Assembly: GCA_030141605.1 (NCBI GenBank)
Contig: JAQGDQ010000831.1
Span: 26,710 to 90,709, forward strand
DNA from: Tubiluchus corallicola
Lineage: Eukaryota > Animalia > Priapulida
Length of the DNA: 64,000 nucleotides
Direction: 5' to 3'
Position numbers and translations under genes: made by a program. Each line of letters begins with the position of its first letter. Positions within the stretch are counted from its first letter, which is position 1. The notes under the pieces were generated by a model. It saw only the letters and a list, made by a program, of their open reading frames with translations, searched no databases and had not been told where the DNA came from. Positions 1,890 to 37,177 of this stretch are shown piece by piece.

Positions 1890-2190
1890 TGCACTGTACC
1901 CTCCTAGTTTAGATGTGTTCAGTTGTGACGTAGCGCATACGTTTTTCTACGACGTTATATATTATTTTTGTTTCTTAACAATAACGTCAAAGATAATAAT
2001 TACAGTGTTAAAGTTCAAAAGTGTTTAACATGCACTGTACCCTCCTATTTTAGATGTGTTCAGTTGTGACGTAGTGCATACGTTTTTCTATGACGTTATA
2101 TATTATTTCTGTTTCTTAACAATAATAATATTGTTTCTTAACAATAATAATATAACAAAGACAACAATTACAGTAATAAAGTTCAAAAGT
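1890..2190. repeat. Tandem duplication of about 140 bp
   Basis: TGCACTGTACCCTCCTA...AAAGTTCAAAAGT occurs at about 1890 and about 2031. Confidence 0.85.
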
Positions 2191-2203
2191 TAGAATGGTG
2201 TAC

Positions 2204-2669
2204 CTGGCGTCTGTGTTACACTCAAACACCCCGAAGAGATGACGTCTCCTCCACTTTCTTTTTCATCAGAAGCTTGGCTGCTGACAACGGAAGGCACCTC
2301 CTCAAGTTGCGTGAAGTCTCTAGGTTCATAACCAAACAGAATGTTCTCCTTATTCGTACCCACCTCTCCCTCTTCCAGAGCTGTAAACTGCTCCTTGGCG
2401 TACACGTACCCCACTTCAGGGACCTTGGATTCGAACCCCATCTTCGTAGGCGGCACCTCTCTGTAGTAATCAGTGGGCGCCGGGTAGTAGAAACTACCCA
2501 TCCCCGTATTTCCCGGAACGTACGACGAAATCACGGACGGCTGTAAGTTCTGGTTTGTCGATCTGTCCATCTTTCGCTCAGTTAGCACCTGTCTGGGAGG
2601 CTGATGATCGCCGCCTATGATGCGCTCAATGGTGAAATACTTGGAATTCCCTGTTTCAGAAACCATCAT
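2204..2669 (-). CDS. NK-like (NKL) homeobox gene, coding exon 1 (contains eh1 motif)
   Basis: ATG at 2669 gives MMVSETGNSKYFTIERIIG..., where FTIERII is an eh1/Groucho-binding motif. The exon ends at CCAG|GTACAC, a phase-1 donor that joins the homeobox exon in frame. Confidence 0.8.
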
Positions 2670-3354
2670 AGAAATGACTAATTTCACACAACTTACTATC
2701 TTTTTTACTCTCACTACGTCACAAACTACGAAAACAAATTATCAACAGACAGGTATGTACTTAGAAGATGAGGAACTTTCAGTTTCCTTGACTACTCTCA
2801 GTCACAAACTACAAAGACAAATTATCAACAGCAGGTATGTTCTTAGAAGATGAGGAAAGATGAGAAACTTAGAAGTTTCAGCTTCATTGACTATTCTCCC
2901 ACTTACCTGTCCAACTGGAACAGACGCAAAGCGGTAATTCGTCCAATCACGGACAACAAAGAAGCAGATTAAACGCAATACGACACTAATGAGAGGAGGT
3001 ATTAATGATTGCAAACTTTGATTACGAACTGATCATTGGCAATCAATATCGAACTCTAATGGCGGCCCATACAAGTTTGAACAGCGGGCACTAATACTAA
3101 AGTGTACAGTCAGAATATGAACTATCACATCTGCTGTATCAGCCGATGGGCTTTGACAATAGCTCCATTGACCGAAGCCAAGTGGACGTTAGCAGCCTGT
3201 ACACAAGAGTATCACGAACTGTACACAATTCGGCGGCCGCCCTGTAGCGGTGAGTCGTTTGGTCGGCCGCACCCCCCCGGGGTTGGGAGAAGCACAGAGT
3301 CGGTTTAAGAGTCGGTTCCGGGTAGGTTAATCCCTAGGCAGACTTGATCTTTGG

Positions 3355-5920: not shown

Positions 5921-6420
5921 CAGGGGTGTGCAAATTATCTGACTAGCCGGGCCACATTAAACTTTCCCGTAATTCCTGCGGGCCACAGGCAGTTTGATCA
6001 AGGAACCAAGTACAGAAAGGCCTAATAACGATTTTTTTGCATCCGACCTGCGTACATCATTACTACTACACTCAAGAAACTATTTTAGAAGTTATTAAAA
6101 TTTATATTACAAACCATATATTTCTACTTTCAGGACAGATAGTGGTAATTTCATTACAATGCACATTAGTAATGTGTATCACACAGTCTGTGTAGTACAG
6201 TGACATTAAGCTACAACCGTCTTGTAAGGGTTAATGGCATCCAATCTAGTAGAAAAAACTACCTGCGCTATCTTTGGGATCATGGCACGGACTTCAGCTG
6301 GATACACTCAATTAATCGCCCGGGCCGCACTTTCATTAGGTTGACAAATATCTTCGCGGGCCGCACAAATTCTCTCGGCGGGCCGCAAGTGGTCCTCGGA
6401 CCACAGTTTGCACACCCCTG
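5921..6420 (+). mobile_element. hAT MITE family A, copy 1
   Basis: TIRs CAGGGGTGTGCAAA/TTTGCACACCCCTG; TSD GCATAGAG/GCGTAGAT; five copies in the window. Confidence 0.93.
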
Positions 6421-6537
6421 GCGTAGATGACACAGATATAATCACCGTAGTAACTGACCTCTTTGAATTGACTCATGACGTATTTCTGATTAGAGAAATA
6501 CCCGGTTCATTAGTGAGTCAAAATGAGTGCATCGGAG

Positions 6538-9535
<2,998 letters not shown>

Positions 9536-9554
9536 TACTTCTAATTCACATAGT

Positions 9555-9850
9555 CAAAAATCACGCAAACGTTTCGACAGATTACTGCTGTCATCGTCAC
9601 TGGTAAATTTTACAAACATACAGCCTGTTTATATAGGCAGAACCTATAGAACATTGTGCAACTAATTAAGTCGTTAACAGACGCCAACTAAGTTATATGT
9701 CTCTTCGTCCATGTTGGAACTACCGCTAAAACTAGTCCAACGTTGTGACGCAGCAGATCACGTGGCTTACAACGTTGTGACGCCGCAAATCACGTGCCTT
9801 CTCGACCTGTGACGCAGCAAATCACGTGCCTTCTCGACCTGTGTCGGGTC
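9555..9850 (-). mobile_element. Putative Penelope-like pseudo-LTR remnant with a degenerate hammerhead motif
   Basis: Minus strand reads TATATAAA (about 9628-9635), then GTGACGA-T-GACAG-loop-CTGTC-GAAAC-GTT. Three TGTGACGC..ATCACGTG repeats lie upstream on that strand. Confidence 0.5.
9744..9832. promoter_or_regulatory. Three tandem modules of a TGACG half-CRE plus a CACGTG E-box upstream of the TTLL-like gene
   Basis: TGTGACGCMGCARATCACGTG occurs three times; a putative 5' UTR intron follows at 9887-10002 (GG|GTGAGT ... TCCAG|). Confidence 0.45.
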
Positions 9851-10018
9851 AGCAAATTAACCTGCATATATCTGCAGGACAGCTGGGTGAGTATGGTATG
9901 TAACATAGAGACAGGTTCTTAACTAAATCAACTGTATTTGCTGATACAGTATGCACACCATGTTGTATTTGCTATTATAATGGCAGCTTGATTTAACTCC
10001 AGATCTTCAAGAACACCA

Positions 10019-11620
10019 ATGGCTTTAATTTTTGAATTTATTGTGATTTCTTTAATGCATGTAGTGAAAGTTTTGAGCGACGATCAAGCACTGCTGAACA
10101 ATTCAATGATACGAGAATGTCCGCGGGTGATACCATCGCTGACTCCTAGTCTCTTCCCCAATGTTGCACCTGTAATCAACTTCGGATTACCTGGCCAGAT
10201 CGTCGAAGAGCTTCCAAGTTTACATAAAAGGCTTCTAAAATGGAAGGTCAGTACGCCACAGTCGGAGGAGATAGCCAAAGAATTGATCGCGGAGCATTCC
10301 AACATTCGTTTAACAGATGATGAGACGTGGATTGGATGTTGGTGTCTTCCCATGAGAGTATCTGAGTATAAACAGTTATCACGATACCAGAAAGTTGATC
10401 ACTTTCCAGCTTCGAAGTCACTGTGTACGTGGAAAAATACTTTTTGGAAGCAATTTCTGCGCATGCGTTATTTGCACGGACAAAAGGAGTTCAACTTTGC
10501 ACCTTTGACTTTCATTCTGCCCCAAGAAAAGTGTGAATTTTTAAACTATTCAGCATCAAATCCCAGGAAAAATATGTGGATTACCAAGCCGTTTGATACA
10601 TCCCGTGGTGAGGGGATCAAGATAATCAGCAACAAGTCTAAACTTCCAAGTGGAAATGTGATTATCCAAGAGTATATTTCAAAACCTTACCTGATTGAGG
10701 GACGGAAATTTGACATAAGATTGCACGTATATGTTCCTTCACTAGAACCGTTAAGAATCTACATTCACAGAACAGGAACAGTTCGGTTTGCAACAAATAA
10801 CTACACCTGTGCTTCTGATGATCTTGAAAATAATTTTGTGCATCTGACAAATACTCATATTAATAATAAAAATCCCGATTATCACACAAAAAGATTCACC
10901 AGTTTTGGAGAAGCGCCACACAGATGGTCTTTGTCATCTTTGTGGCATTATTTAGAAAGGAAAGGCATTAAGACGGAGGAAATATGGTGGAAAATCAAAG
11001 ACATGGTGGTGAAACAGTTTATTAGTTGTGAATCTGACTTATATAACGCCTTGAACACTTACGGAAGCAGGCCCTATTCGCACCATGAACTGTACGGATA
11101 TGACATCTTACTGGACAACAAATTAAAGCCATGGTTATTAGAATTCAACACCAGCTCGGGCATTGCAAAGCCAACTTTCGTTACACAGATGATAACGGAC
11201 TATCTTAATACGGCTGGATATCGCGTGCCTAAAAGATCCAAACAGTTTTTCGCAAAACGGAAGAACATTTCTTCATCACAGCATGGATTCACGTTACTGC
11301 GCGATTACGATCTCGCTCCATTCGAGAAAGAAAAACGAAAACATTTTACTACAGAAGCGACTGAAGGCGAAGCAGCAGCAAGTATTCTAGATGACCTGAC
11401 ACCAGGTGACGTGCGTGTGCTAGTAGAAGCAGAAGACGAGTTTCAACGACGTGGTGATTTTGAGCGCATCTTTCCCAGTCCGACATCTCATAAATACTTG
11501 AAATATTTTCATAGGAAAAGTTACGGTAATTTATTGCTGGATGCGTGGACGAAGAAATATCACAGCAATCCTCGGGAAGGTTTAAAGCGTTTGAAAGAGC
11601 TGTGTTCAAAATTCTTGTAA
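10019..11620 (+). CDS. TTLL4: Divergent TTLL4-like tubulin-tyrosine-ligase-family (ATP-grasp) protein, intronless CDS, with a signal-peptide-like N-terminus
   Basis: 533 aa. SLFPNVAP, WIGCW, HFP, WITKP..SRGEG, QEYISKPYLIEGRKFDIR, VRFA, HLTN, ELYGYDILLD..LKPWLLEFN and C-terminal LTPGDVRVLVEAEDEFQRRGDFERIFPS all align by recall with human TTLL4. Probably a paralog or retrocopy rather than the ortholog. Confidence 0.9.
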   Translation: MALIFEFIVISLMHVVKVLSDDQALLNNSMIRECPRVIPSLTPSLFPNVAPVINFGLPGQIVEELPSLHKRLLKWKVSTPQSEEIAKELIAEHSNIRLTDDETWIGCWCLPMRVSEYKQLSRYQKVDHFPASKSLCTWKNTFWKQFLRMRYLHGQKEFNFAPLTFILPQEKCEFLNYSASNPRKNMWITKPFDTSRGEGIKIISNKSKLPSGNVIIQEYISKPYLIEGRKFDIRLHVYVPSLEPLRIYIHRTGTVRFATNNYTCASDDLENNFVHLTNTHINNKNPDYHTKRFTSFGEAPHRWSLSSLWHYLERKGIKTEEIWWKIKDMVVKQFISCESDLYNALNTYGSRPYSHHELYGYDILLDNKLKPWLLEFNTSSGIAKPTFVTQMITDYLNTAGYRVPKRSKQFFAKRKNISSSQHGFTLLRDYDLAPFEKEKRKHFTTEATEGEAAASILDDLTPGDVRVLVEAEDEFQRRGDFERIFPSPTSHKYLKYFHRKSYGNLLLDAWTKKYHSNPREGLKRLKELCSKFL

Positions 11621-12244
11621 TCAAACTGAAACCAAAGTTCTTGTTTCATTTAATAAGGCAACTGTGGTAAAAGTAATACGATTGTAGTCACAGAAAACAC
11701 TGTAAACAGAGGTTAATACCACTGTATGCTTTATTAACATAATTAGTATGTCCAGTATAACATAAATGTCCAACAGCTCCCATAAAGTGGATTAACCTGA
11801 CTGTTCAGAGCACAATTGAGTAATAACAGACAGGTGACTAGCAGGTAACAAACAGAAAAGCTGGTCAAAACCAAAAGCTTTACATTTCCGCCACAGATGG
11901 CGCCTCGTGTATGATAAGTAAGATTAACAAAAAGAAAGCTAAGTCTGCTACACCCGGCTCCTAATGAGCGCTTATAAAGTGGTCATCACAATAATCTGCT
12001 TGTAAGTCACTGTACAATATTACATGAACTCTGAACAGTAACACTTAGATGCTACTTAGTACATTTAAATATTTTTGTCAAAACTGAACAATCATACTTT
12101 GCTAGTTAAAACTATTCCAGTGAAACATTTTGAGTGAAATAATTCCAAACATGAAAGTTACAGATACATACTGTTAGCTAAAGCACTACAAAGCAATGAA
12201 TCAAATAACGAATCGATAATAAGATACGATGTAATAAAACAGAA

Positions 12245-14380
12245 TCTGTTTGTTAATGAAATTAAAATGATCTGCATTATTTAGCTGATACAGTATACTG
12301 ACATTGCCTAAATGCTCAAAGAAACTGCACTTCGCAATTTGGTGATTGAGGAAGAATACCGTCCCACTGCCGCACTGAAGTAAGTAAAATCGTAAATTTA
12401 TCGTTTGCAACAGCCTTATGTCCGCAGTAATGCTGTTATGAATAAATTTCGGAATCATGAATTAAGTGATTAATTAATGGAGTTATCAACTTCATCAGAT
12501 TATGTTGATAAAGAGACCTCCAAATTGGATCAGAGAAATTTATTAAGAAATATGTGAACTCACTTAGCTGGTAAAGCATATATTTATTGTAAGGCAAGGA
12601 ATTATTGTCACGAGAGTTGTGTTTACAAGTAATAGAACAGGTGTTCATTTAGAGAGGGAAAGTTTGTCACAGGTGTTTGAATTTAAGAGAAGCGAAACTG
12701 AATTTTATAACTTGAAGTGGTCAGGAGTATATACCTCCTGTAATGTAACGGAGTCGTAGAGACAATCTTGTGAGAAGGAATTATTGCTCTATAGATTTTA
12801 TCTTAAGCTCTAGTAGCCGGGTTGTGAATAACCTTATAGCAATTAATGTACTAGATGTGAATCCCTCCTTCAGTCTTAAGTCAAGTTTTATACGATCACA
12901 TGCGACAGATAAGAATCAATATTAACTAGGGAGATTAATATTGCATATCAAAAGGGTGACTAAGATAATAAAGTGATAACTGGTACTCGGATCCAGGTTC
13001 ATTAAGAAGGAGATATGTGGTAAAAGTAATACGATTAAGAAGAGTTTGTTAATGAAATTAAAATGATCTGCATTATTTAGCTGATACAGTATACTGACAT
13101 TGCCCATGCGCTTCGCAATTTGGTGATTGAGGAAGGATACCGTCCCACTGCCGCACTGAAGTAAGTAAAATCGTAAATTTATCGTTTGCAACAGCCTTAT
13201 GTCCGCAGTAATGCTGTTATGAATAAATTTCGGAATCATGAATTAAGTGATTAATTAATGGAGTTATCAACTTCATCAGATTATGTTGATAAAGAGACCT
13301 CCAAATTGGATCAGAGAAATTTATTAAGAAATATGTGAACTCACTTAGCTGGTAAAGCATATATTTATTGTAAGGCAAGGAATTATTGTCACGAGAGTTG
13401 TGTTTACAAGTAATAGAACAGGTGTTCATTTAGAGAGGGAAAGTTTGTCACAGGTGTTTGAATTTAAGAGAAGCGAAGCTGAATTTTATAACTTGAAGTG
13501 GTCAGGAGTATATACCTCCTGTAATGTAACGGAGTCGTAGAGACAATCTTGTGAGAAGGAATTATTGCTCTATAGATTTTATCTTAAGCTCTAGTAGCCG
13601 GGTTGTGAATAACCTTATAGCAATTAATGTACTAGATGTGAATCCCTCCTTCAGTCTTAAGTCAAGTTTTATACGATCACATGCGACAGATAAGAATCAA
13701 TATTAACTAGGGAGATTAATATTGCATATCAAAAGGGTGACTAAGATAATAAAGTGATAACTGGTACTCGGATCCAGGTTCATTAAGAAGGAGATATGTG
13801 GTAAAAGTAATACGATTAAGAAGAGTTTGTTAATGAAATTAAAATGATCTGCATTATTTAGCTGATACAGTATACTGACATTGCCCATGCGCTTCGCAAT
13901 TTGGTGATTGAGGAAGGATACCGTCCCACTGCTGCACTGAAGTAAGTAAAATCGTAAATTTATCGTTTGCAACAGCCTTATGTCCGCAGTAATGCTGTTA
14001 TGAATAAATTTCGGAATCATGAATTAAGTGATTAATTAATGAAGTTATCAACTTCATTAGATTATGTTGATACAGAGACCTCCAAATTGGATTAGATAAA
14101 TTTATTAAGAGAATATCAGAACTCACTTAGCTGATAAAGCATATATTTAATGTAAGGCAAGAAATTATTGTCACGAGAGTTGTGTTTACAAGTAATAGAA
14201 CAGGTGTTCAGTCTTAGGTCACGTTTTATACGATCACATGCAAAAGATAAGAATCAATATTAATTAGGGAGATTAATATTGCATAATAAAGAGTGACCAG
14301 GTTTAATGATAACTGGTGAGCCGTGACTAAGATAAGAAAGCGATAACTGGTACTCGAATCCAAGACCATTAAGGAGAAGC
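12245..14380. repeat. 781-bp tandem repeat, about 2.5 copies plus a degenerate tail
   Basis: Near-identical ORF translations are offset by 781 bp (12436/13217 and 12922/13703). Confidence 0.92.
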
Positions 14381-21385: not shown

Positions 21386-23368
21386 ACGGCGCGTTCAGAC
21401 TAGCGAATCTTCTCTCTCAAAATGAAAGCAGTAAGCAAAACACAATTGAAGATGAATTAACATTTCATATTAAATTTTACTTGTCCAACCCATGAAGCAA
21501 TAAGAGAAAAATATGAAGACAGACTCCACAATTTTACCTTTTTAAAAAAAAACCAGCTTACCCTGGTTATTCAATTCCGAGAACAAAATTGACCTAAATA
21601 CCTTTGTGCAGTTTATCACTGAATGTATCCTGGCAAGATTGTCTAAAACACGAATAATAGTACAAAAGTAATAATGTGGCAATCCTGGCTATACAAAAAT
21701 ATTGTAATTAGAATATATTTGAGCACTAGTATTATATATATATATATATATATATATAACCCATTATAGTCAGGGCCTATTTCAGCCTAAGCAAGTACCG
21801 GGGAAGTAGGGCGTGTTAGGCCCCCTGGGGGGGGGGGGGGGTGACGCCGCCCAAATTTTTGAACTGCTAGAACGCCGGAGAAACATTTTCGAAGAGAAAA
21901 TATGGAGTTATACAGTTGTTAAAGGAAAGAACAATTGAAAGAAAAACTGCTCTATTCTCAAGACCAGTCCTTAATACTTGTCAAATAGTTAAATCAAAAA
22001 CAACATCTTTGCAATATGTAATACCGTACTCTCACTTCCGTACTGTATAATTATATTACTCTACACTAGGTGAAAAAACAGAATTCCTATTTCTTTTGTG
22101 AAAGTATTATTATACATAACAAATATTTCTGTAAAAGTAAAAACATTCAGTTCAATACTCGTCTTTAGCAAGTTAAAAAAGCTAGTGAAGTCTTATGGGT
22201 ATTTAATTAATAACAGCAGATATGATACCATTATTACGTATCGTCCTGTTGGTTGGCTTTGTCATTATCATCTATGCCATCATTGGTCTGAAGCTTTTCT
22301 CAGGGAAACTACAAAATGGGCAAACATTATTACAGTATCTTAATAATGGTATCATGGCGCCAGTGAGCCGGTGATTTAAAGCAAAAATGGACCCAATCTT
22401 AAACTGTAGGTCAATACAATCTACTTTTTTAAAATATTGAAAGGAAACATGCTATTTCTTCAAAAATGACTTACGTGAAAGAATTATTGTCACACAAACA
22501 CATAATGTTCTTTTTGTACTTGCCAATGTATGTAATGCATATTTGTGCAATAAATCGAATTGAATTGACAGCAATTTTACTCGCAAGTGTGAACTTGCTT
22601 AAATGTATAATATTAATCTGTAGTTCTACTGGTATATAATGTTCTTTTTGTACTTGTCGATGTATGTAATGCATATTTGTGCAATAAATCGAATTGAATT
22701 GACAGCAATTTTACTCACAAGTGTGAACTTGCTTAAATGTATAATATTAATCTGTAGTTCTACTGGTATATAATGTTCTTTTTGTACTTGTCGATGTATG
22801 TAATGCATATTTGTGCAATAAATCGAATTGAATTGACATCAATTTTACTCGCAAGTGTGAACTTGCTTAAATGTATGATATTAATCTGTAGTTCTACTTG
22901 TATATAATGTTCTTTTTGTACTTGCCAATGTATGTAATGCATATTTGTGCAATAAATCGAATTGGATTGACAGCAATTTTACTCGCAAGTGTGAACTTGC
23001 TTATATGTATGATAGTAATCTGTAGTTCTACTGGTATATAATGTTCTTTTTGTACTTGTCGATGTATGTAATGCATATTTGTGCAATAAATCGAATTGAA
23101 TTGACATCAATTTTACTCGCAAGTGTGAACTTGCTTAAATGTATAATAGTAATCTGTAGTTCTACTGGTATATAATGTTCTTTTTGTACTTGTCGATGTA
23201 TGTAATGCATATTTGTGCAGAAAATCGAATTGAATTGACAGCAATTTTACTCACAAGTGTGAACTTGCTTTGCGAGTTGCTGTCGACAAAAAATTGCAAA
23301 TCTCTGACACTAACTGAGCATGCGTGTGAGTTAATTTGGCGGGAAATTTGCTAGTCTGAAAGTGCCGT
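21386..23368. mobile_element. Possible non-autonomous TIR element (PIF/Harbinger-like ends) enclosing the 134-bp array
   Basis: ACGGCGCGTTCAGACTAGC at 21386 and GCTAGTCTGAAAGTGCCGT ending at 23368 are imperfect inverted repeats; the TSD is unclear. Confidence 0.4.
22502..23270. repeat. 134-bp tandem repeat, about 5.7 copies
   Basis: Repeated ORFs offset by 134 bp (22626, 22760, 22894, 23028). Confidence 0.95.
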
Positions 23369-24150: not shown

Positions 24151-24607
24151 TACTAGTTACTATCTGCTATGAAAAAAATATTATTTCCTTGAATATTTTT
24201 CTCAATCCGAGTTAAGCCTGTGCTTTAGAACATTCGTAACATATTAATCACGACGTCTTAGCACTTACGATTTCTAAAAGCTAGTTTATTTATACATTTT
24301 TTTATCTAAGCGTTCGTACGAAAGGGGAACCTAATTATGTATATCAGTTTGCAACGCGTGCCAGGTGAACTAGTCCTGGTGGTCGTGTCACTTGCTCTTG
24401 CAGCAAACATACAAACGTGACACCAAATCATCTCAATCAATAGTGAATATCGTGTCAGGAGGTCTCATTTTTATTACTTAAGGAGTGGTGAAGTAGGGGA
24501 GATTTACTAATGTACACAAACATTTCATACAAAACAGGTTTACAGCGGAGAGCTTAATCAAACAGTTTCCGTCTATAACAACTCACAGAAAGGCTATTGT
24601 GTAAGCC

Positions 24608-25429
24608 ATGGCATTAGAGTATAACTTGCAATACTCCACTGTGTTCGAGTTCGAAAGAGTGCGCAGTTATGAAAGATGGGGTGCAGGAAAAGGGTGGATG
24701 GGACAATATGTCCACTGGTCAGTGTACCTTTCCATGGGCTACGTATTATGCATATTTGGAATCCAGCGTTTCATGGAGCATCGACCAGCGTACAAATTGC
24801 AAATCTTGCTGATTTTATGGAATTCGCTTCTGGCAGTGTTCAGTGTATTTGGTGCCGTCAGAAGTGGGACAGAGCTGCTGTACGTACTGCAGACGTTCGG
24901 CGTCACACGCTCAATATGTAGCCAAAATTATCTTTACCACGGAGTCATCGAATTTTGGTCTTTCGCTTTTACGTTTTCAAAAGCGCTAGAATTGATTGAC
25001 ACCGTCTTCGTGGTGCTACGGAAGGGGCGTCTGATCTTTCTCCATTGGTACCATCACATCACCGTGCTCATGTTCACCTGGTATGCCTACATAAACTGCA
25101 TTGGTGCCTGCAGATGGTTCATGGTGATGAACTTTACCGTTCATGCACTGATGTACGGTTACTACGGTCTGCGTGCGGCCAAGGTGTACGTTCCAAAGCC
25201 AGTAAGCATGGTCATAACCACAATGCAGATACTGCAGATGGTGACAGGCATGACTGTCGCTGTCGCCGAGCTATACCTTCTGCACAGTGGACAGTGTCCG
25301 AAGTCCAGTAAGAGCACATTGTATTTCGCCATAGCAATGTACTTAAGTTATTTGGTTTTGTTTGTGAACTTTTTCTACCAAAACTATCTCTCGCCATCTC
25401 AGAGTAAAGTAAAACAGAAGGAAGTTTGA
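24608..25429 (+). CDS. ELOVL6: Very-long-chain fatty acid elongase, ELOVL6/ELOVL3-like, intronless CDS
   Basis: 273 aa with multiple hydrophobic helices; motifs SKALELIDTVFVVLRK, FLHWYHH (HxxHH), MNFTVHALMYGYY, ITTMQILQM, MYLSYLVLF; C-terminal KxKxx ER-retrieval signal (KQKEV). Confidence 0.93.
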   Translation: MALEYNLQYSTVFEFERVRSYERWGAGKGWMGQYVHWSVYLSMGYVLCIFGIQRFMEHRPAYKLQILLILWNSLLAVFSVFGAVRSGTELLYVLQTFGVTRSICSQNYLYHGVIEFWSFAFTFSKALELIDTVFVVLRKGRLIFLHWYHHITVLMFTWYAYINCIGACRWFMVMNFTVHALMYGYYGLRAAKVYVPKPVSMVITTMQILQMVTGMTVAVAELYLLHSGQCPKSSKSTLYFAIAMYLSYLVLFVNFFYQNYLSPSQSKVKQKEV

Positions 25430-25902
25430 AAGGCTTTTATTTACAAATTAAATAAAAATAATACATTTTTAAATGTACTTACTAAAAAATGTGTTTTTCT
25501 CGAATGTGACACTCAGCGATTTGCATTTTGTTGTTATAAACTTATTGTAAACAGATTTTAAAATACATTGTAACAGGACGATGATAAATATTGTGTGTCT
25601 ACCTTAATTTATTGTAATTTGTTAATACATGTATTGTTTTAGATTAATAACTACTCTTCAATAAACTTTTACATTAGTACTATTGTGCAGTCGGTAATTG
25701 TGTGGTTGACATTAGCGTGTAGTGCTTCTGTGTAGAGATTCAGTAGGGTTAGTATTTTAGCAACATAGTAAATGTAGCCTATATTTTGAGTAAAACTGTG
25801 TATGATTGTTGACTGAAAACCAACGACTGATTGATCTTTGTATTATTTGAAAAAATACATCGCTCTTTCTATAGTAACTTTTACGGAATGAATAAACGGG
25901 TT

Positions 25903-26200
25903 TGAGACATAGACATAGACATTTTATTTTTCTGCAATTTGTGTCACAAATGTTCGTTTTACAAAAAATAACTTTGTCTGTGGAGATGGGGGCGAGGAAA
26001 GACCGTAGGTCATCTACTCACTCACCCCTTATAATTTAATGTTGATGACAGAAAAAGAATTGATGACACAGGATGCAAATAAACTAACAAAATAAAGCAA
26101 TAACATAAGCAGAATTATAAAAGCAAACATAACAACAATCGCATAAGTGAAAAAAATAATAAACAAACAGTGGTAAAAATAAAATGATGATGAAATTAAT
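25903..26200 (-). mobile_element. 3' terminus of a CR1/L2-group LINE
   Basis: Minus strand: stem-loop GGGGTGAG..TAGATGACCTACGGTC..CTCGCCCC, then AATAAA and a (TCTATG)n tail. Confidence 0.55.
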
Positions 26201-27713
26201 CACAATGTCGTAATTTATGTATGGAGTCACGTGACTTTCAGTGTAAAAGCATGCATTTATTTAAATACGTTTTGCAGTCCTACTGCTGTAACCTTTTGCG
26301 TTTGTTTGATTGTCTTAAAAATGCCATAAAACATACACTTGTGTAACTAAATCAGTGCCTAGCAAGAGTAAATATTTACAGCAGTACAGATACGTTTACT
26401 AAGTCAATACAAAATCCTCTCGAAAAAGTGATTCGCTGGTACAGAATACACGTAAGAAAAATCCAGAATGCAGGTAAGAAAAATGAAATGTTAGCCTGCA
26501 AGATCAAGCATGATAACATAATCGAACACATTAGAGGTATAGGGATTTTTACTTAGATTTTTAGATTTAATGGATTTATTTCGCAATAAACATATACATT
26601 ACATGTTCATCGCTAATCAGTTTTTGTTAACACAAAATTATGATATAATTCATGAATTCTGCGCTAGAGACCTAAGAAGCTAGCTTATGGTAGGTCACTA
26701 GAATTAGTTACGAAAAAAATTACAATATATATATTTGTAATTAAAGACAAAAATAACCAGTTTCAGCCAACAGTTGAAGCAATAAAACGCATTGAAACTT
26801 GACCTACTGTCAGTTTCACAATGATGGGATAAATATTTAATAAATTCCACACCTTTCTATGACGTTGTGGATTAAAAATCCTAAGATGGCGAGCAAATCG
26901 GAAATAAAAATGAAAACCGTCATTTATACTGTAAAATTTATACTCTGTCCGCTAGACTCCCAAAACGTGGTCAATGGTGCCATTAGTAAGGCAAATTCTC
27001 ACAAGCATTTTCATAAAGTCATGTGCTTCTGGGTGTCAGACATGGCTGGTGAACGCCAGGGCCGGTGTTAGAAAATGGAGGGCCCAATTAGAAAATTGTT
27101 TGTGGCGCCCTCTGCCCTACAAAAGCTGAAGATTGGTGTTTTATGCTTCCCGGAAATATTCAAATAAGTAAATAGAACCTGTTAAAATATGCTAAATGTC
27201 AAATAATTATGCTCCTGAACCCAAGCCAAATAAGGGAAACTTAAGGAGTGGTGTCACGTGACGACGTGGGCAAAGAGTTAACCCGCTTGTCAGACTGCGC
27301 TCGCAGCTCATATATAGGTCTTCACACTTACACGCAGGACGTCTCTTGTAGATCAGGGGCCTTGGCATTGCTATCCATTTATTATATTTATTGTGATGTT
27401 ATTTAATAAATGTGTTATTTCGCAAACAAAGTCTTGATAGCTTTGCCATTACTCAAACGTTCATAAACAGCTACACACAGCTCACACACGCACTACCACT
27501 ATACCACAGACTTTATAATTTTACTAAATATCTCAGCCAGGAATAAGCAAGAACAAGAAGTATATTCGTAGCTTTAATTCTAAATGGTTCTAACGGAAAT
27601 GTTGGCCTTGCGGCTGTGAAGTAAAAAAATGCACTGTTTTGCTTTCCCATGTTTGCTGTTTGGAGGTAATGTAACGTTTCTGAATGTAATTTTCTGAAGC
27701 ATCACTCCCAGTA

Positions 27714-28325
27714 GCGAGACATGGGCTACCTACACAAGACAGGAGACCAGACTCAACTCCTACCACATGAGGTGCCTGCGTCGGCTACTTGACATTAGGT
27801 GGGAAGACAGAATTTCCAACCGCGAGGTCCTCAGCAAGGCCAAGACAACATCAATCTTTGCTATGCTGAGTCAGAGGCGTCAACGCTGGCTAGGTCATGT
27901 CAGACGCATGGACAAGGGTCGTCTTCCAAAGGACATGCTGTACGGCCAACTCGAGGAAGGCACGCGTCCGACCGGTCGGCGTCGCCTGAGGTTCTCTGAT
28001 GACTGCAAAAGAGACCTCAAAGGCACTCACATAGACGTCAGTTCATGGGAAACCAAGGCAGATGACCGGCCAGCTTGGAGACAAGCAGTCAGCGAGGGCA
28101 TTAAGAAGGCTGAGGAGGACAGACATGAGAGACAACGTCAAATGAGACTGGGAAGTAAAGCATCAATTAGTTCTCTCAATGACCCCGTTTTCACCTGTGG
28201 GGACTGCGGCAGAGACTGCCATTCCAGGATCGGGCTCTACAGCCACAGCAGACGCTGCTCCAGCTCCACTTTATGGCGCAACGCATCGTCTTCATAGACG
28301 GACGGAGGCCGATAAACGATGATAA
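27714..28325 (+). mobile_element. 5'-truncated RTE-clade LINE (ORF C-terminus, stop at 28297)
   Basis: ETW..., RCLRRLLDIRWEDRISN.EVL, RWLGHVRRM...RLPK..LYG and the C2H2 finger CGDCGRDCHSRIGLYSHSRRC; 10-bp TSD ACTCCCAGTA at 27704 and 28326. Confidence 0.92.
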
Positions 28326-29721
28326 ACTCCCAGTAATTTTAACTGAACGCACCTTTGTGGATGATACTGGCCCATTTCTTCACGCTCGGAAAACTGTTTG
28401 TACAAATTTGTGCATTGCAAGAATGAAGCGAAATAATGCTGTGACCATGTAAGTTTTAAGAGTTAACTTTGTCTAGTACTAAACTGGGCACCATTGTGAT
28501 AATCTGAATAGCAGTAGAAAGAACTGTGAATAGTTTTTACGGCGCACTACCCTAAAAAGAGTTCCGTTTTACAATAGCCAAAAAGATTAGTAATGACATG
28601 GCTGCTAAAGCTATGGAATGATTAGGCCTGGTTGAGCGAGTAATGGTCAAAATTAAATGCGACGAAAAGTGTCATGTAGTATGTCAATTCATTTCAATTC
28701 AGTTTTATTTGCACAAATACATACAATGTACATTGGCAAAGCAATACATGTTAAATACTACATAAACCAGCTGTGTGCAAAGTTATTTTCATAAACAAAT
28801 ATTAAGATATGGTATTATCATACTAAAATCATAGTTACATAAAAATTGTATAATTTAGCAATGGAAAAAGAAAAATGACTTAAAAGCAGTAGATATCTGT
28901 ATCAGCTTTTTAAATGAAGATTAAAAAAAATAACATAATGAGAGTTGGAAATAATTTAGCTAAAGTCTGCTGCCAAAGTGCTGATTTCGTCTTCCCTAGG
29001 AATCCGAGTTGTTGCCAAAAGTTTCTTTTATTGATGTCGTAGATGTATAGATAGATGAACTGATGTGGACTACGATGACTTATGACATTTAGGCAGGTAA
29101 AGAATTCAGTTACGATCTGAGCAGACTTAAAAGGAAATTTTTCTGTAAAGTAAATAACATACTGTGCACGAAGGGGAATGGTTGATAAGAAATGACTACT
29201 TTGTATCTGAGGAAGACTGCTTACCAAACTTTAACATGTGCCACAAGAGTTGGGTGAGTAAAGCATGTGTTGCATGGAATAAAATTTACATGAAGATTTT
29301 CCACTATTAACAAAATGAAAGTGTAAACATTTTTGCAATATTATTGCAACTCCATCAGAGACACTCATAAAAAAATCTTTCTTTTTGTGGAACATCAATG
29401 GCGCTACCAAGCCTTTCCATTGCCAGATTTTTACGCGAGTTTTATTAGACTGGACAGAGTATACCGAGAAAATATAGCCTACCCACTTAATCTTACAGAT
29501 TATTATATGAAAACTACTGCCGAGAATTGACCTCTTCGCTCAGTACTAAGAGAAATTTCGTAGAAAAAAATTGACACTGAAATTCGGTACACTTATAGAT
29601 CATGTTATTACCTGGCGTTATGTGTGCATTTTTCATATTATCTTGTAAACGTAGCGTGATATATGATTCATACTTGTATGCTGTACCGATCTACGATGCG
29701 AAATAAACTATTCTCTTCTTC

Positions 29722-29723
<2 letters not shown>

Positions 29724-29768
<45 letters not shown>

Positions 29769-29860
29769 TTACTACTATTATTATTATTATTATTATTGTT
29801 ATTATTATTATTATTTTACTACTATTATTATTATTATTATTGTTATTATTAATTATTTTT
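29724..29860. repeat. (TTA)n microsatellite
   Basis: Direct reading. Confidence 0.9.
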
Positions 29861-31151
29861 CTTATTGTTGATGAACTAAGGCAGCTGACAAACGCAAACT
29901 GTTTAGTTTACCAAATTGCCTTTGCCTGGCTTATATAGTTATGACGTGTATACTTGGCTGATGGTTGTTCACTATGCCTCAAAAAGAATTGCAGATAATT
30001 TCGAGCACCACCAAATAGGCAGCTAACTTTTCCCGTAAATCCGTTTCTATAAACCAGAAGACTGAGCGGTTAGATCGAAAAGAAGCCCGCGTTTGTGGTT
30101 GTGCAACAGCATTACAATTGACGGAAAATTACTTAAGCTTCTGTATACTGCATTTTTTGCAATTAGGGGTAATAAATTTAAACAGTAGAAATTCGATCAT
30201 TATTATAATCTACGCATGCAGTAAAAATTGATTCATAATAATTAATATCATTATAATACAATTTTTCTGCCAAATTTATAAAACTAAATAGGGAACGAAT
30301 AGCTCTCCTGTGTAGTAGTTAGTATAGTAGTAGTAATTAGTGGAAAGTCATTTGGATAATTGACCGCCCACCACCGGATCTTCAACCAAACGAAGCAGTC
30401 GTTGATCAAAGGGCGAAATGTCGTTTTTTTCGGTGTGCGATGTCTGGGAAACAAGCTACGTTAACGATCTGTTTATATTCATCCGCTTAAACTTATTTGC
30501 TTTTTCAGTAACCATCAATACTATAAATTTGATAACAATTATTTATTTAACAAACTGTTACCGGATTTCTGTTAAAGGCGTTTTACGATTTGTCTGCAAT
30601 TTAGGCAAAGGTTATTGCTGCTTAACCTTTTGCACTATTTTTCGCGCAGTAATTTTTCAGGCGCGAAAATTCGGCAATATGAAATCGTTGTTAGTAGATA
30701 TTTTTTGTTGTTTTAATTTCATGGGGTAAAAAACTTAACGAAAGCACTGTACTTCCGTCTACCACTTATTATAGCTTTGAAAATATAAAGGTAATATTTT
30801 ATAAGTAACTGTGAGTTATGATGTAAAGATTTTACTATATTTAGATTATTAACAAAATTAATATAATTATAATTTCTAGAACTCTGATCAGATTGATTCT
30901 TAGTGGCGCGGTACCGTACATTGTATTAATGGAAAATTTCCGCTACAGTCAAACAGCAAAAAATTTGATTCTGAAATGACGTCACTACAGTGGCAGTCAG
31001 AATCGTGTCCACTACATTTCGTATACAAGAATAGAAATAGTAGAATATTCAACGTAAGTAAAGCATCCAGAAAACATTGTGGGGGGTAAAAAGCGGTCAT
31101 TTATCTTTACCCCCTATCCATGCTGTAAGGTACAGTACAAGAGTACTCTCT

Positions 31152-31166
31152 TGGCGAATTTTTGAA
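31152..31166 (+). promoter_or_regulatory. Putative CDE/CHR cell-cycle element of the MKI67-like gene
   Basis: TGGCG-AATT-TTTGAA has the 4-nt spacer before a CHR TTTGAA. A donor AAG|GTAATA at 31178 could end a non-coding exon 1. Confidence 0.5.
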
Positions 31167-32477
31167 GAATTTAAAAGGTAATATAGTAGGCGTATGTGGT
31201 TATTGTTAAATTGCCATATCGTATTGCATAACGCTTGTTGTGTAGTCCAATTAGTTCAAAATGTTTCCCGATGCTTAATTTTCTTTAAAACACAGACATT
31301 CTTTTATCTTATCTCCACAAAACACCAAGTGTAGTATTTATAGTTTATTTTATACAGTCATTATTTATTTACACTTGTAAGCCCTGCCATAATTAAGTAC
31401 TGAATAATAAGTCAGTAATTTAAGAATCAAGTTAGTAAAGGAATGGTTCAACAATAATAATATTCGATCGTATTAAAGCAAAGCCAGACCCAAGCTTAAA
31501 CTGTAGGTCAAAACAATTTACTCTACCCTGTTGAAAGGAACACTATTTTTTTCAAAAATGACTTATGTGAAAGAATTATTACCACACAAATACAATTTCA
31601 CATTCGCGTCGCTAGTTCTTTGCCGTTTCGTGCATTTCGGAAACGCATTATACAAAAACAGGTACTGTAGTTTCTGTTTACAGTTACTGTTAGTATCTCA
31701 GGAACTCCGCATGTTCTACAGCTCATGCGTGAGCACAGCGGTAAATTTGAAATTTGAATTTTTATCTTAAAACGTGCCTAATTTTAGTACAACACACTGA
31801 ATATCTTACAGTAGCACTGTACGTCAATTTTCGCTTTCACAAACACATGCAACAAGCTCATGGAATATTTTTGCTATTGAAAATTATATTAGTTTGTGAT
31901 ATCATCAATAGTTAGCTCGCCCACCATTAATTAAATTTTTAATCTATTATTTAATTATCAGAAACGCGTTTGCAGTATTAATCGTATTAAAATGTTTACT
32001 TTTTATCGGACTTGAAAATGGGGTAGTATATGAAAAATCATCCTGTCTTCCTTCAATATTACCTGCAGAATAAAATTTCAGTGCAGGGTTTCTTTAAGCT
32101 ACATGCGAAAATCTACCAATCTCATCTGCTGGAGATGTAAAATTTGACAATTTTTTTCTAAAAAGGCATTGGTTTTTTTACTCAAATTGACTGATGATAC
32201 AATAACTGTGTGAAACATTATTCTCGCTGTAAATCATTGTTAACATTAGGGCTGAGACAGTTAGGCTTTTTAAATAACCGTTTAAAGTTTAAACATTTAT
32301 TATTGCATTCGGACAACCATTCAACCGTTCCTGATGATGTCATACATTGTTTCATTCATTTCTTGCAGGAGTAATCTTAGCCGGTCAAATCTATCATGCG
32401 CCAGCTAGAATGTCCAACTTGACGGCATCCTCATAACATAAGCGAGTGAAAAACTTTTTACTCTTTACCATTTAGAT

Positions 32478-32978
32478 CAGGTGTGTGCAAATTATCTGAC
32501 TAGCCGGGTCACATTAAACTTTCCCACAATTCCTGCGGGCCACAGGCAGTTTGATCAAGGAGCCAAGTACAGAAAGGCCTAATAACGATTTTGTTTGCGT
32601 CCGACCTGCGTACATCATTACTACTACACTCAAGAAACTATTTTAGAAGTTATTAAAATTTATATTACAAACCACATATTTTTACTTTCGGGACAGATAG
32701 TGGTAATTTCATTACAATGCATATTAGTAATGTGTATCACACAGTCTGTGTAGTACAGTGTTATTAAGCTACAACCGTCTTGTAAGGGTTAATGGCAACC
32801 GATCTAGTAGAAAAAACTACGTGCACTATCTTTGGCATCGTGGCACGGACTTCAGCTGGATACACTCAATTAATCGCCTGGCCCGCACTTTCATTAGGTT
32901 GACAAATCTCTTCGCGGGCCGCACAAATTCTCTCGGCGAACCGCAAGTGGCCCGCAGGCCGCAATTTGCACACCGCTG
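32478..32978 (+). mobile_element. hAT MITE family A, copy 3
   Basis: Same sequence as 5921-6420; TSD ATTTAGAT/AATTAGAT. Confidence 0.92.
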
Positions 32979-33161
32979 AATTAGATGCTTTTGTGCAACC
33001 AGATTAACTGAAACAATTTTCTATTAAGTGGGCCATTGCTAACTGCGTACGCCAACTCAGAAAAGATACATTTCGTAAATACGGATATGTAGAAAACTTG
33101 GCTAAGTAACGGTTAAATGGTTAGTGATTTACTAACGGCTGCACCTGTTAGCGGATGGTTA

Positions 33162-33670
33162 CAGGTATCAGAATCCGCGGAATTCCGAGTTTTTGGAAGA
33201 CCATTTTTGTAAATCGCGTAAATTTGTTGAGAAAATTTTTCCCAGTACATTATTTCCCACTGACCCAGTACATTATTGCATAAGCTGACCGCTAGTTGGC
33301 AGGCCGTCACTTTGTTTACATCCCGTAAATCAGTGTAACCACGTGTATATCTCTATGTATAAAAATATAGAATCAATTGTGCGGAGTTATTTGAGTCAAT
33401 TGCAGACAGTTTTCATATACTTTTGCATAGGAGCAGCCAGCGTTTTTGAGACAATTAGGTATCATGTATCCTTGATAGTCGGGTATTTTAAATTATGTAC
33501 GAAACAAGGTAACTGATATTTTAAGTCCACTTAGAGGCTCTCTATGGTCACAAAATTGCAATTTTTTGCTGCCTCCAAGGGGGCTTCCTTGAACTCCATT
33601 GGGGGCCTAGGCGGCCCCAAAACCCCCGGCCTGTTTCGGAGTTTTTTGCAATTTGTCATTCTCATCCCTA
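33162..33670 (+). mobile_element. MITE family B (CAGGGATGAGAA TIR), degenerate copy
   Basis: Internal sequence matches 46894-47406; ends with TTCTCATCCCTA. Confidence 0.8.
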
Positions 33671-33736
33671 CAGGTAACTATCTCAGCCTTAGTTAATATT
33701 AAAATTAAAGAAATGATTGATTTATTGTTTTCTAGG

Positions 33737-33828
33737 ATGCCTTTATATGGCAAAATTGTGGTCATTAAACGGAATGGACAGGATGGTGCACACTTTCCTT
33801 TAACCGTGCCACAGTGCCTTTTTGGCAG
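33737..33828 (+). CDS. MKI67: Ki-67-like protein, coding exon 1 (FHA domain start)
   Basis: TCTAG|G ATG; MPLYGKIVVIKRNGQDGAHFPLTVPQCLFG(R), compared with human MWPTRRLVTIKRSGVDGPHFPLSLSTCLFGR; phase-2 donor GCAG|GTAGG. Confidence 0.92.
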
Positions 33829-33988
33829 GTAGGTAAATTATATGTTTATTCTATCACTTTAAAATCTATAAGTCTTTCTGAATGATTTAGTTGAAGTACG
33901 TGACTTAAAAAACATAGTGGTTATGGGTCTTGCTTATGTAAAGGGTTGAAAACCTTTGTTTCTTCATTTAGTAACAATGACTATTAAA

Positions 33989-35034
33989 CTTGGCTGTGGA
34001 TTTGGTACATTAAACTCCTAACTCTGGCTCCAACTCCATCTCCTAGAGTCAATCAATCAATCAATTAATTTATTTCACTCCAGCAATACATATACAATAC
34101 ATCAACATACAATATTATTGAAACAAAAAGAAACAGTATAGGTAAAACAAACGTTGATGAAGTCAAATTAACCAAATAAAAGAGTTGCTGTATGACACCT
34201 TGAAAGCTTGGCTTGTTAAGGTGGCACAAATGAGTGCATGAAAGAATGGTTAGGGTTAGTAGACATGATGGAATAGAAAAAAATAGTAAGATTAGGGATA
34301 GGAAGAAGGAAAAGAGGAGAAGAAACGACCACAGTGTATGTTTAATTTACATGGAGGTATATTAAAATAGCATTATAATTAATTGGAGGCCATATATTGC
34401 GACTGCATGAGACATGGAACCATTTAAATTGTATTATAAGTATGAATCAAAAGTGGTCCTTTTCAAGTACTTTTTGAAACTATAAATAGTTTTGTGTATT
34501 TTTACTTGGGCACTTATTTTATTCCAGTTATTGGGGGCTGTGAATTTAATAAAGAGTTTTAGGAGCCCTGACTCCTGCCTTTAAGTAATAGTTTGTGGTA
34601 CTCTCTATATTTAGCTACAGTGACATTTTATCACCACTTCTCATGATAAAAAAACAGTCTAGCTGCATAGATGCCAATATGAAAGCGTCTCAAAATGGGA
34701 CGTTATGCATAAATGCATTACATGTTAAAAGTAACTGGAGTCCGAGTTTGTCTATTTTTTACCAACTCTAACATTGACTCCTCTAACAATAAGTGTACTA
34801 CCTAGTCCCGACTCCAACTCAAAAACCCGATTCCTTTAGCATTTAATTTACTGTCGACTCCGACTCCAGTACCCTAAGTTTTAACAACTCCGACTCCTTT
34901 AAGCAGTTAGTTTTAACAACTCCGACTCCTTTAGCAGTTAATTTACTGCCGACTCCGACTCCAGTACCCTAAGTTTTAACAACTCCGAGTCCTTTACCAG
35001 TTAATTCACTGTCAACTCCGACTCCACAGCCATG
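33989..35034. mobile_element. hAT-like element with ACTCCGACTCC repeats, containing a nested LINE 3' end (about 34051-34560, minus strand)
   Basis: Ends CTTGGCTGTGGA/TCCACAGCCATG; TSD CTATTAAA/TTATTAAA. The nested part translates to FIKFTAPNNWNKISAQVK..SFKKYLK* and ends in an (ATTG)n tail. Confidence 0.7.
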
Positions 35035-35145
35035 TTATTAAACCTATTTTCAGTCGTTTGAAAATACCCATTTCCTTTTGGTTATGGTTTTTGCCAGCTA
35101 TAAAAATTTTCTTTCTTGTTTGAGTAAAATTAATACATTTTACAG

Positions 35146-35227
35146 GAGCAATGAGTGCGACATACGGATTCAGCTGCCCAATGTTTCCAAAGAGCACTGT
35201 CGCATTGATGTTAATGAAAATGGAGAG
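35146..35227 (+). CDS. MKI67: Ki-67-like protein, coding exon 2 (FHA)
   Basis: SNECDIRIQLPNVSKEHCRIDVNENGE, compared with human GIECDIRIQLPVVSKQHCKIEI; TACAG| and |GTAAGT. Confidence 0.93.
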
Positions 35228-35267
35228 GTAAGTTTCGTTGCACATTTACCTAAAGTACATTTTAAAT

Positions 35268-35749
35268 CAGGGTTGTGCAAATTATCCGACTAGCCGGGCC
35301 ACATCAAACTTTCGCGCAATTCCCGCGGGCCACAGGCAGTTTGGTCGAGGAGCCAAGTACAGAAAAGCCTAATAACGATTTTTTTGCATCCGACCTGCGT
35401 ACATCATTACTACTACACTCAAGAAACTATTTTAGAAGTTATTAAAATTTATATTACAAACCATATATTTCTACTTTCAGGACAGATAGTGGTAATTTCA
35501 TAACAATGCTTATTAGTAATGTGTATCACACAGTCTGTGTTGTACAGCGACATTAAGCTACAACCGTCTTGTAAGGGTTAATGGCATCCGATCTAGTAGA
35601 AAAAACTACCTGCACTATCTTTGGGATCGTGGCACAGACTTCAGCTGGATACACTCAATTAATCGCCTGGGCCGCACTTTCATTAGGTTGACAAATCTCT
35701 TCGCGGGCCGCACAAAGTCTCTCGGCGGGCCGCAATTTGCACACCCCTG
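35268..35749 (+). mobile_element. hAT MITE family A, copy 4
   Basis: TIRs present; TSD TTTTAAAT/GTTTAAAT. Confidence 0.92.
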
Positions 35750-36512
35750 GTTTAAATGTACACTGCAAAATGTTGCTTAGTAAGTTAAATAAGAGAATGA
35801 AATGAATTCATCTTGCGTGAACTTTATTTGTTTGAACAGCAAAAAATGCATTAAGATGCAGTTAAGTAAATTTTTAATAGTGAATTTTCGCTTATGAAGG
35901 TCAAGCTTAAATGGCTTCAGATTTGAAGCCCAATATTGAAAGAATTTGACGAATTCAAATCAAAATTAAAAACACATACATTAAATCGTTTTGAAAACCC
36001 AACATACGTAAACGATAATATATATTCATCCACAAATTTTATTTACCATTTTAAATTATATGTATGTGTTGTATATAGTCTATTATAATTTCCGTGTAAT
36101 ATTATAATGTATATCTAGTTTTAAATTTTTGACACAGTAGTTTTTAGTTTGCACTGGACGCATTTGCCTTTAACAGTTGTGTGAATTTTATTCTCATGCT
36201 GCGATATTCTTTTATGCTTTTATAGTTATAAATATCGATTTTTTTTATGGCAAATAAAGATTATTATACACACACACACATATATATATATATAAAAAGA
36301 TCTTAATATTGGTTTCGGGCTTTCAGGACAGTTTAAAATACAAACTATAAAATCTTTTGTCCTATGTTTTGTCTTCTAGCTGCAGGTATCGGTCAATTTC
36401 GGGAAATATTAGACATTCGTTTGCTTTAGTTTTGCAACAAAAGATCTAAAAGTCATAAGGATCTTCGCTTTCTTAAGTTTGGGCTGTATTTGGTACAAGA
36501 TATTAGCATATG

Positions 36513-36513
<1 letters not shown>

Positions 36514-36588
<75 letters not shown>
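36514..36588. repeat. (GT)n microsatellite
   Basis: Direct reading. Confidence 0.97.
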
Positions 36589-36590
<2 letters not shown>

Positions 36591-36739
36591 TGTATTGGTA
36601 TTTGCGAACGGGCGTGATTTTGTTTATGTGATGATGTTTCGCTTATTGAGGCAGTTTAATTACACATTAATTAGTGTCGTTAAGCAGGAATGTAACTATG
36701 TTTGCCTAAGATCATGCTTTACGTTCTTTTAACTGCATA

Positions 36740-37177
36740 CCGTATTTTCCCGTGTATAAGAGACCCTTTTTTGCTCAGAATTTTCACTTTAAAAATAGGG
36801 GGTCTCTTATACATGGGAGTAAGTCTTTTCAATAAGATGCATAAATTGTGACACTAATGATTTTAAAGAAATAAGTGCTCTACAACTGTTTTGCGTGTCG
36901 CGTTCGACTATGAAGCGGTTGTAAGCAATACAAGCATCGTGACACAGGCATTATCTCCTCGTTTTCTCTTTTCCTGTTACAGGTTTGCAGGTACGCACTT
37001 TAATATATAACAGTACTCTTTTTCTACAACACATTAACTGGTTTTATTTTGTTTTCAGTACCGCACTGAGTTGAAAAAAGTTGTACTCTACCCTCTAAAA
37101 ATGTCCGTCTGAAAAAACTTTTTTCCAGAATTTTTGCCTAAAAATTGAAGGGGTCTCTTATACACGGGAAAATACGG
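36740..37177. mobile_element. Tc1/mariner-pogo-type MITE
   Basis: TIR CCGTATTTTCCCGTGTATAAGAGACCC at both ends; TA TSD. Confidence 0.9.

Follow-up and report, generated by a model that had tools for sequence, protein, structure and literature searches.

A divergent TTLL4 offshoot with a signal-like start and a remodelled donor pocket in a priapulid, a candidate secretory-pathway ligase

In a window of 64,000 nucleotides from the priapulid Tubiluchus corallicola (the whole stretch of DNA analysed here), we found an open reading frame at 10019-11620 of the forward strand that runs for 533 codons from an ATG at 10019, free of stops and without a coding intron (Table 1). Its best matches are named TTLL4 proteins, at 40-42% identity over ~92% of the length and with homology from about residue 36, and the Pfam TTL domain (PF03133) covers residues 122-397 (E 6e-69). 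TTLL4 is a tubulin glutamylase, and the gene is a divergent offshoot of it that has remained intact; both the best hits and the tree (98/84) place it within the TTLL4 group and not with TTLL5. The predicted structure (mean pLDDT 68, pTM 0.75, built on a 10-sequence alignment) matches TTLL6 with a Z of 34.1 (rmsd 2.8 over 369 residues) and TTL with a Z of up to 26.9, and is uninformative on residues 1-41, where pLDDT is below 50 on that same alignment. The absence of coding introns suggests that the offshoot is a retrocopy that acquired a new front end. CpG content was uninformative.

The neighbouring genes, namely a LINE-type reverse transcriptase, a homeobox gene, an ELOVL gene and a Ki-67-like gene, indicate that the window is animal DNA. 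Elsewhere in it, at 22207-22371 of the forward strand, lies an isolated fragment that resembles a membrane segment of voltage-gated channels (Pfam Ion_trans, E 1e-4, under the curated cut-off), and no other channel pieces were found among the 150 short ORFs scanned, of the 212 listed. The sequence 3' of the offshoot, at 12230-14020, is duplicated with a spacing of ~780 bases, and neither AATAAA nor ATTAAA occurs within 600 bases past the stop codon of the offshoot.

Table 1. Coordinates of the features at and around the TTLL4 offshoot (positions in the window)
Feature	Position	Strand	Remarks
Homeobox gene	351-542 and 2190-2738	-	upstream exon with a motif that we take to be eh1-like
LINE-type reverse transcriptase ORF	6345-9257	+	stops ~760 bases short of the start codon; an A-rich stretch and a (TC)n run come next
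32-base tandem unit, 3.1 copies	9744-9843	+	each unit with GTGAC-N3-GC and TCACGTG; matched 3 times in the window and never in 100 shuffles
In-frame TAA	9858-9860	+	precedes the ORF by nine codons once 9886 is joined to 10003 in silico
Predicted 5' UTR intron	9887-10002	+	GTGAGT...CAG, 116 bases; takes out five upstream ATGs
Predicted signal peptide	10019-10078	+	residues 1-20; cleavage after V-L-S; acidic +1/+2; no basic n-region, Glu at 6
Rival TAG acceptor	10062-10064	+	within the DNA that encodes the signal; splicing to it would leave out Met1
Met30	10106-10108	+	first ATG past the rival acceptor, in frame, six residues ahead of the homology; start of a possible cytosolic form
TTLL4-homologous body	10124-11620	+	residues 36-533 and stop, no coding intron; TTL domain 10382-11209
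Arg196, branch-initiator arginine (predicted role)	10604-10606	+	TTLL6 Q180 position
Arg302, replacing the first glutamate-selecting lysine	10922-10924	+	TTLL6 K283 position
E375-x-N377 active-site motif, then a loop five residues short	11141-11182	+	Val388 at the TTLL6 K377 position; new Lys384; open sequon N-T-S-S
Fatty-acid elongase (Pfam ELO)	24605-25429	+	single ORF; second intron-less coding region in the window

A previous description made from the letters of this DNA (hereafter the sequence-only reading) had proposed that splicing of a 5' UTR intron leaves an in-frame stop upstream of the ATG, which would accordingly be the start. The donor GTGAGT, the acceptor CAG and the in-frame TAA are all where it had placed them, no ATG lies between 9714 and the donor at 9887, and none of the 28 local donor-acceptor pairs tried supplies an upstream in-frame ATG. 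That the ATG at 10019 is the start beyond doubt is nevertheless not forced by these features, because the intron is only predicted and the DNA that encodes the signal contains a second acceptor, so that an upstream stop is no proof of the start, and use of the acceptor at 10064 would yield a cytosolic protein that begins at Met30. At the 5' end there may also be a micro-exon of nine bases (9878-9886) or a farther donor. Further upstream, the differences among the 32-base units leave two motifs untouched, GTGAC-N3-GC, which we take to be an ARE-like (Nrf2/Maf-type) site, and TCACGTG, presumably an E-box, and this stack of sites in front of the donor hints at a candidate, perhaps inducible, promoter. 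One RNA run gave short pieces on repeats only, both at 8000-13000 and in a control region at 24500-37000, and is silent on expression; in the control neither the ELOVL ORF nor the FHA exon of Ki-67 was covered by any piece.

The encoded N-terminus reads MALIFEFIVISLMHVVKVLS, with the predicted cleavage directly before two aspartates (DD). Its best 12-residue Kyte-Doolittle mean is 2.52, the hydrophobic stretch being interrupted by E6, H14 and K17, and it has both an N-terminal hydrophobic core and a (-3,-1) cleavage site under the crude hydrophobicity and cleavage rule of this analysis, which is not SignalP. For comparison we took 159 canonical proteins of the TTLL4 type, each beginning with Met and carrying both TTLL4 motifs, with isoforms counted and Lingula excluded; none of them has a hydrophobicity of at least 2.5 in the first 30 residues, and one reaches 1.95. 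Equally hydrophobic are 17 of the 439 open ATG-started 35-codon stretches of the window, and 5 of the 439 also satisfy the crude cleavage rule, both counts including the offshoot itself; in simulated stretches the corresponding numbers are 233/20,000 and 93/20,000. Acceptor-like sites with an in-frame ATG and a signal-like stretch in front make up 10 of 994 in the window, a count that includes the offshoot locus and some duplicated sequence. The chance of such a start in the DNA of the window is about 1% (0.5-4% according to the rule used). The signal-like start, with its V-L-S site, is thus real and exceeds chance about a hundredfold, as had been proposed in kind, and is matched by no canonical TTLL4-type protein of that set. 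The additional claim that it replaces the long N-terminus of TTLL4 holds only in part: the hydrophobic start is present, but the canonical models P0024 and P0003 have only 8-17 residues before the first conserved motif.

The strongest alternative is a cytosolic TTLL4 retrocopy translated from Met30. In it the hydrophobic codons would be bypassed, or would form the T-rich 3' end of an intron that uses acceptor 10064, and the enzyme would act in the cytosol on tubulin or on other acidic proteins there, perhaps using a different donor. The two acceptors, at 10064 and 10002, have equal pyrimidine counts (10/17 each) and the ATG that follows the former is in frame, while the first 20 codons contain 48% T vs ~26% for the remainder. 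Moreover, an intron end of the Ki-67-like gene (41650-41730) reads in frame as a false signal with a hydrophobicity of 2.59, which indicates that hydrophobic in-frame stretches can be intron ends and provides a control for such findings. The protein itself would also be at home in the cytosol: with a net charge of +18 (5th-95th percentile of 121 cores, +9 to +36; Lingula family, -9 to +6) and a basic stretch at residues 401-414, its core fits tubulin or any acidic substrate, an N-glycosylation sequon on the active-site residue N377 would be harmless there, and TTLL4 models with short fronts do occur. At the same time, for the cytosolic form to be right, chance must have brought together an ATG, a signal-like stretch and 29 open codons, at the rate of ~1% given above, the context of Met30 looks poorer for a start than that of Met1 (by general start-context rules), and Lingula has signal-bearing TTLL4 offshoots with similar pocket changes. 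On balance we consider the cytosolic form unlikely, though worth keeping in view.

Six N-x-S/T sequons, at residues 27, 176, 205, 261, 377 and 416, had been taken as a further sign of secretion. All six are present, but they give it no support, as their number is at chance level, without enrichment over shuffled sequence (shuffle mean 3.4, P(at least 6) = 0.11), and one of them sits on the active-site Asn377; we dismissed them as evidence for this reason. Among 121 related cores 470-560 residues long, at least six sequons occur in 8 and at least five in 28; the core of the offshoot has five. The open sequon N-T-S-S at N377 was found in 1 of 354 motif-bearing proteins, the offshoot itself, and nearly all the others carry a proline three residues on. 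Since this site could be glycosylated in the ER, where glycosylation would likely block activity, it counts against a fully active luminal enzyme. Cysteines, a weak criterion for secretion, gave no pairs common to the offshoot and its close relative P0008 (8 Cys vs 2).

The active site keeps much of what a ligase of this type uses. In an alignment to the TTLL6 structure 6vzq (construct offset of 50 inferred), complemented by 10.1101/2020.06.07.139295, the phosphate- and metal-binding TTLL6 residues K125, R219, R241, D346 and E359 correspond to K139, R234, R256, D362 and E375 of the offshoot, and N377 is also kept, while the TTLL6 H362 position, which is Ile in initiases, is Thr378, neither Ile nor His. 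According to that paper, the side chain of the glutamate is held in TTLL6 by K283 and K377, two lysines that are invariant among glutamylases, and an alanine at either one leaves the enzyme inactive. Among 121 related cores, 102 have lysine at the second of these positions; for the first, the pattern used matched 94 cores (27 were unmatched), of which 93 have lysine. The offshoot lacks the two-lysine sequence signature of glutamylases, with Arg302 at the first position and Val388, after a five-residue deletion, at the second. Compared with the branch-initiating monoglutamylase TTLL4, it spans the same region, beginning at the SLF motif and running to the C-terminal helices, and keeps the initiator arginine and the ATP and metal residues. 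It differs from TTLL4 in its signal-like start and lack of coding introns, in the arginine at the K283-equivalent and the loss of the K377-equivalent with the deletion, in Thr-His instead of Tyr-Ser after a conserved Asn, and in Thr-Ser-Ser instead of Ile-Ser-Pro after the active-site Asn. By alignment, then, the residues of ligase chemistry are kept while the donor signature of a glutamylase is lost.

What such a pocket might accept can be considered from two sides. R302 and the new K384, both also found in P0008, could retain an acidic donor, Glu or Asp, which is our first guess, and K384, being nearby, might compensate for the lost second lysine. On the other side, the stretch ending at residue 387 aligns to TTL through residue 343, which we take to be the tyrosine that TTL has at the second-lysine position, with equal lengths in the two proteins. 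Because the shortened stretch has the length of that in TTL, with its tyrosine, a hydrophobic donor is possible, and the loop ending in F387/V388 would suit it. The offshoot has the ATP-grasp ligase fold in common with TTLL6 and TTL (6vzt, 6vzq, 4i4t); it differs from TTLL6, an elongase with both lysines present, and from TTL, for which the paper cited above gives an acidic residue and a tyrosine at the two positions where the offshoot has Arg and Phe/Val.

The relative P0008, a 465-residue record that is 47% identical, is the sister of the offshoot in every tree, with support of 99-100. It begins inside the domain, its front end missing, and has 19 derived states in common with the offshoot, both pocket changes included (counting columns with agreement in at least 75% of the 20 canonical rows). 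That the pocket changes are shared at 47% identity indicates that the remodelling is old and has been kept. Further searches with the protein or with an alignment, of limited recall (one missed a sequence of its own query alignment), returned only P0008 as a close relative, and P0008 was also the only close relative among the best 150 of 11,514 matches in a search of 1.84 billion representatives. A metagenome scan gave 31 loci at 29-40% identity to the offshoot, and an ESM Atlas search with it gave TTL clusters only.

A second alternative is a secreted or luminal pseudo-enzyme. The signal would then be real, but the protein would only bind ATP or acidic proteins and ligate nothing, or would be a copy in slow decay. 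Loss of either lysine inactivates TTLL6 (in the paper cited above), the proline after the active-site Asn is gone, opening a sequon seen in no other of the 354 proteins, and the terminal branch is long, all of which would be compatible with lost activity. We find a pseudo-enzyme quite improbable all the same, as all checked phosphate- and metal-binding residues are retained both in the offshoot and in P0008, at 47% identity, and no stop or frameshift interrupts the 533 codons.

A screen of the N-termini of the first 252 proteins brought up a Lingula anatina model, P0185, with a textbook-looking signal, and a search with P0185 gave TTLL4-like RefSeq models of Lingula anatina in 8 clusters, 6 with a front end and 2 beginning inside the domain, all of them predicted models annotated only as TTLL4-like. 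A signal-like hydrophobic start was present in all six front-bearing models (1.99-3.68; in P0342 after the second Met). Like the offshoot, these six (XP_013397583.1, XP_013384622.1, XP_013397584.1, XP_013388994.1, XP_013398234.1 and XP_013384644.1) combine a signal-like start with a TTLL4 core, are similarly short, with a short C-terminus, and have a shortened second-lysine loop and mostly a K-to-R change at the first lysine (5 of 6 aligned rows). They differ from it in being only ~35% identical, in a longer acidic linker and a near-neutral core, and in retaining the proline after the active-site Asn; most Lingula TTLL4-like models lack the initiator arginine. Chance does not easily account for six different hydrophobic starts; animals therefore very likely possess TTLL4 offshoots that carry signals, and the presence of such a family raises the prior for a secretory reading of the priapulid gene.

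Whether the two share an origin was considered in trees of hand-picked row subsets (19-42 rows). The offshoot and P0008 joined the Lingula group at 97 (quick tree), 98/95 and 94, joined it weakly at 83 (quick tree) and, with a long leech branch in the same group, at 83/68, and did not join it in FastTree nor in the finished mixture-model tree, whose bootstrap had not fully settled. Placing the offshoot with arthropod-side TTLL4 (p 0.30), or the Lingula family with mollusc TTLL4 (p 0.39), was not rejected. Derived states shared with Lingula were no higher than in controls (4/37 for the offshoot and 3/34 for P0008, vs 0-4 in eight control rows). One ancient clade with the Lingula family was not accepted, given derived states at control level and an undecided mixture-model tree, and convergence is as likely as common descent. 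The TTLL terms searched for do not occur in the main text or supplement of the Lingula genome paper (PMC4595640), nor in a 2026 proteomics supplement (PMC13425148).

TTLL enzymes are known for writing the tubulin code, and a few marks on proteins other than tubulin, in the cytosol or nucleus. The sequence-only reading ascribed a hydrophobic N-terminus to the TTLL15 type and took the offshoot to be independent of it; what our analysis adds to this comparison is the placement of the offshoot inside TTLL4. By PMC5051658, the TTLL-15 of C. elegans is closest to TTLL5 and, like the offshoot, is a TTLL-family protein without a direct mouse orthologue; the word 'transmembrane' is absent from the main text of that paper. 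Non-tubulin substrates of TTLL4 and TTLL5 exist, as stated in PMC13052805. A literature search on titles and abstract starts, with most subscription papers outside its scope, returned no description of a secretory TTLL, and a search of the priapulid cuticle literature returned nothing relevant. Among TTL-domain proteins of other lineages, P0073, P0421 and P0429 have strongly hydrophobic starts, and in one ESM Atlas cluster 18% of the members combine TTL with Peptidase_M8. Outside animals, TTL proteins of a secretory type may thus be widespread.

Taking these lines together, we lean, with modest confidence, towards the offshoot being a secretory-pathway ligase with altered donor choice. Of the case made for such an enzyme in the sequence-only reading, the arguments from sequons and from the start codon fail, but the proposal itself remains the best reading, now backed by the signal-bearing Lingula family and the remodelled donor pocket, support which that reading did not have. 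We hypothesise that splicing removes 9887-10002 behind a first exon that is non-coding and that translation begins at 10019, after which the signal would be cleaved after Ser20 or retained as a type II anchor. Luminal ATP would then drive formation of an acyl-phosphate on a substrate carboxylate, followed by an isopeptide bond, so that side chains of secreted proteins would receive an amino acid, in all probability not a glutamate held as in other glutamylases. Cytosol-facing anchors are usually trailed by a basic cluster. An uncleaved anchor of that kind, which would hold the enzyme on the cytosolic face of a membrane, still acting on tubulin or membrane proteins, agrees with the missing basic n-region, a 19-residue mean hydrophobicity of 2.18 and the basic core, but is very unlikely, as two aspartates and not a basic cluster follow the stretch, which is itself broken by E6, H14 and K17.

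More broadly, and more tentatively than for the single gene, we suggest that TTLL4 may have been repeatedly turned into animal secretory ligases that add a non-glutamate residue (aspartate or a hydrophobic one) to acidic side chains, the priapulid offshoot among them; we would place this idea somewhat below an even chance. If it is true, candidate substrates of these enzymes would be proteins of cuticle, shell or matrix. From the changed donor pocket we would expect new chemistry, for which the Lingula paralogues offer ready parallel cases. If the offshoot is luminal or secreted, amino-acid tagging would also take place on extracellular proteins, a modification that nobody seeks in matrix proteomics.
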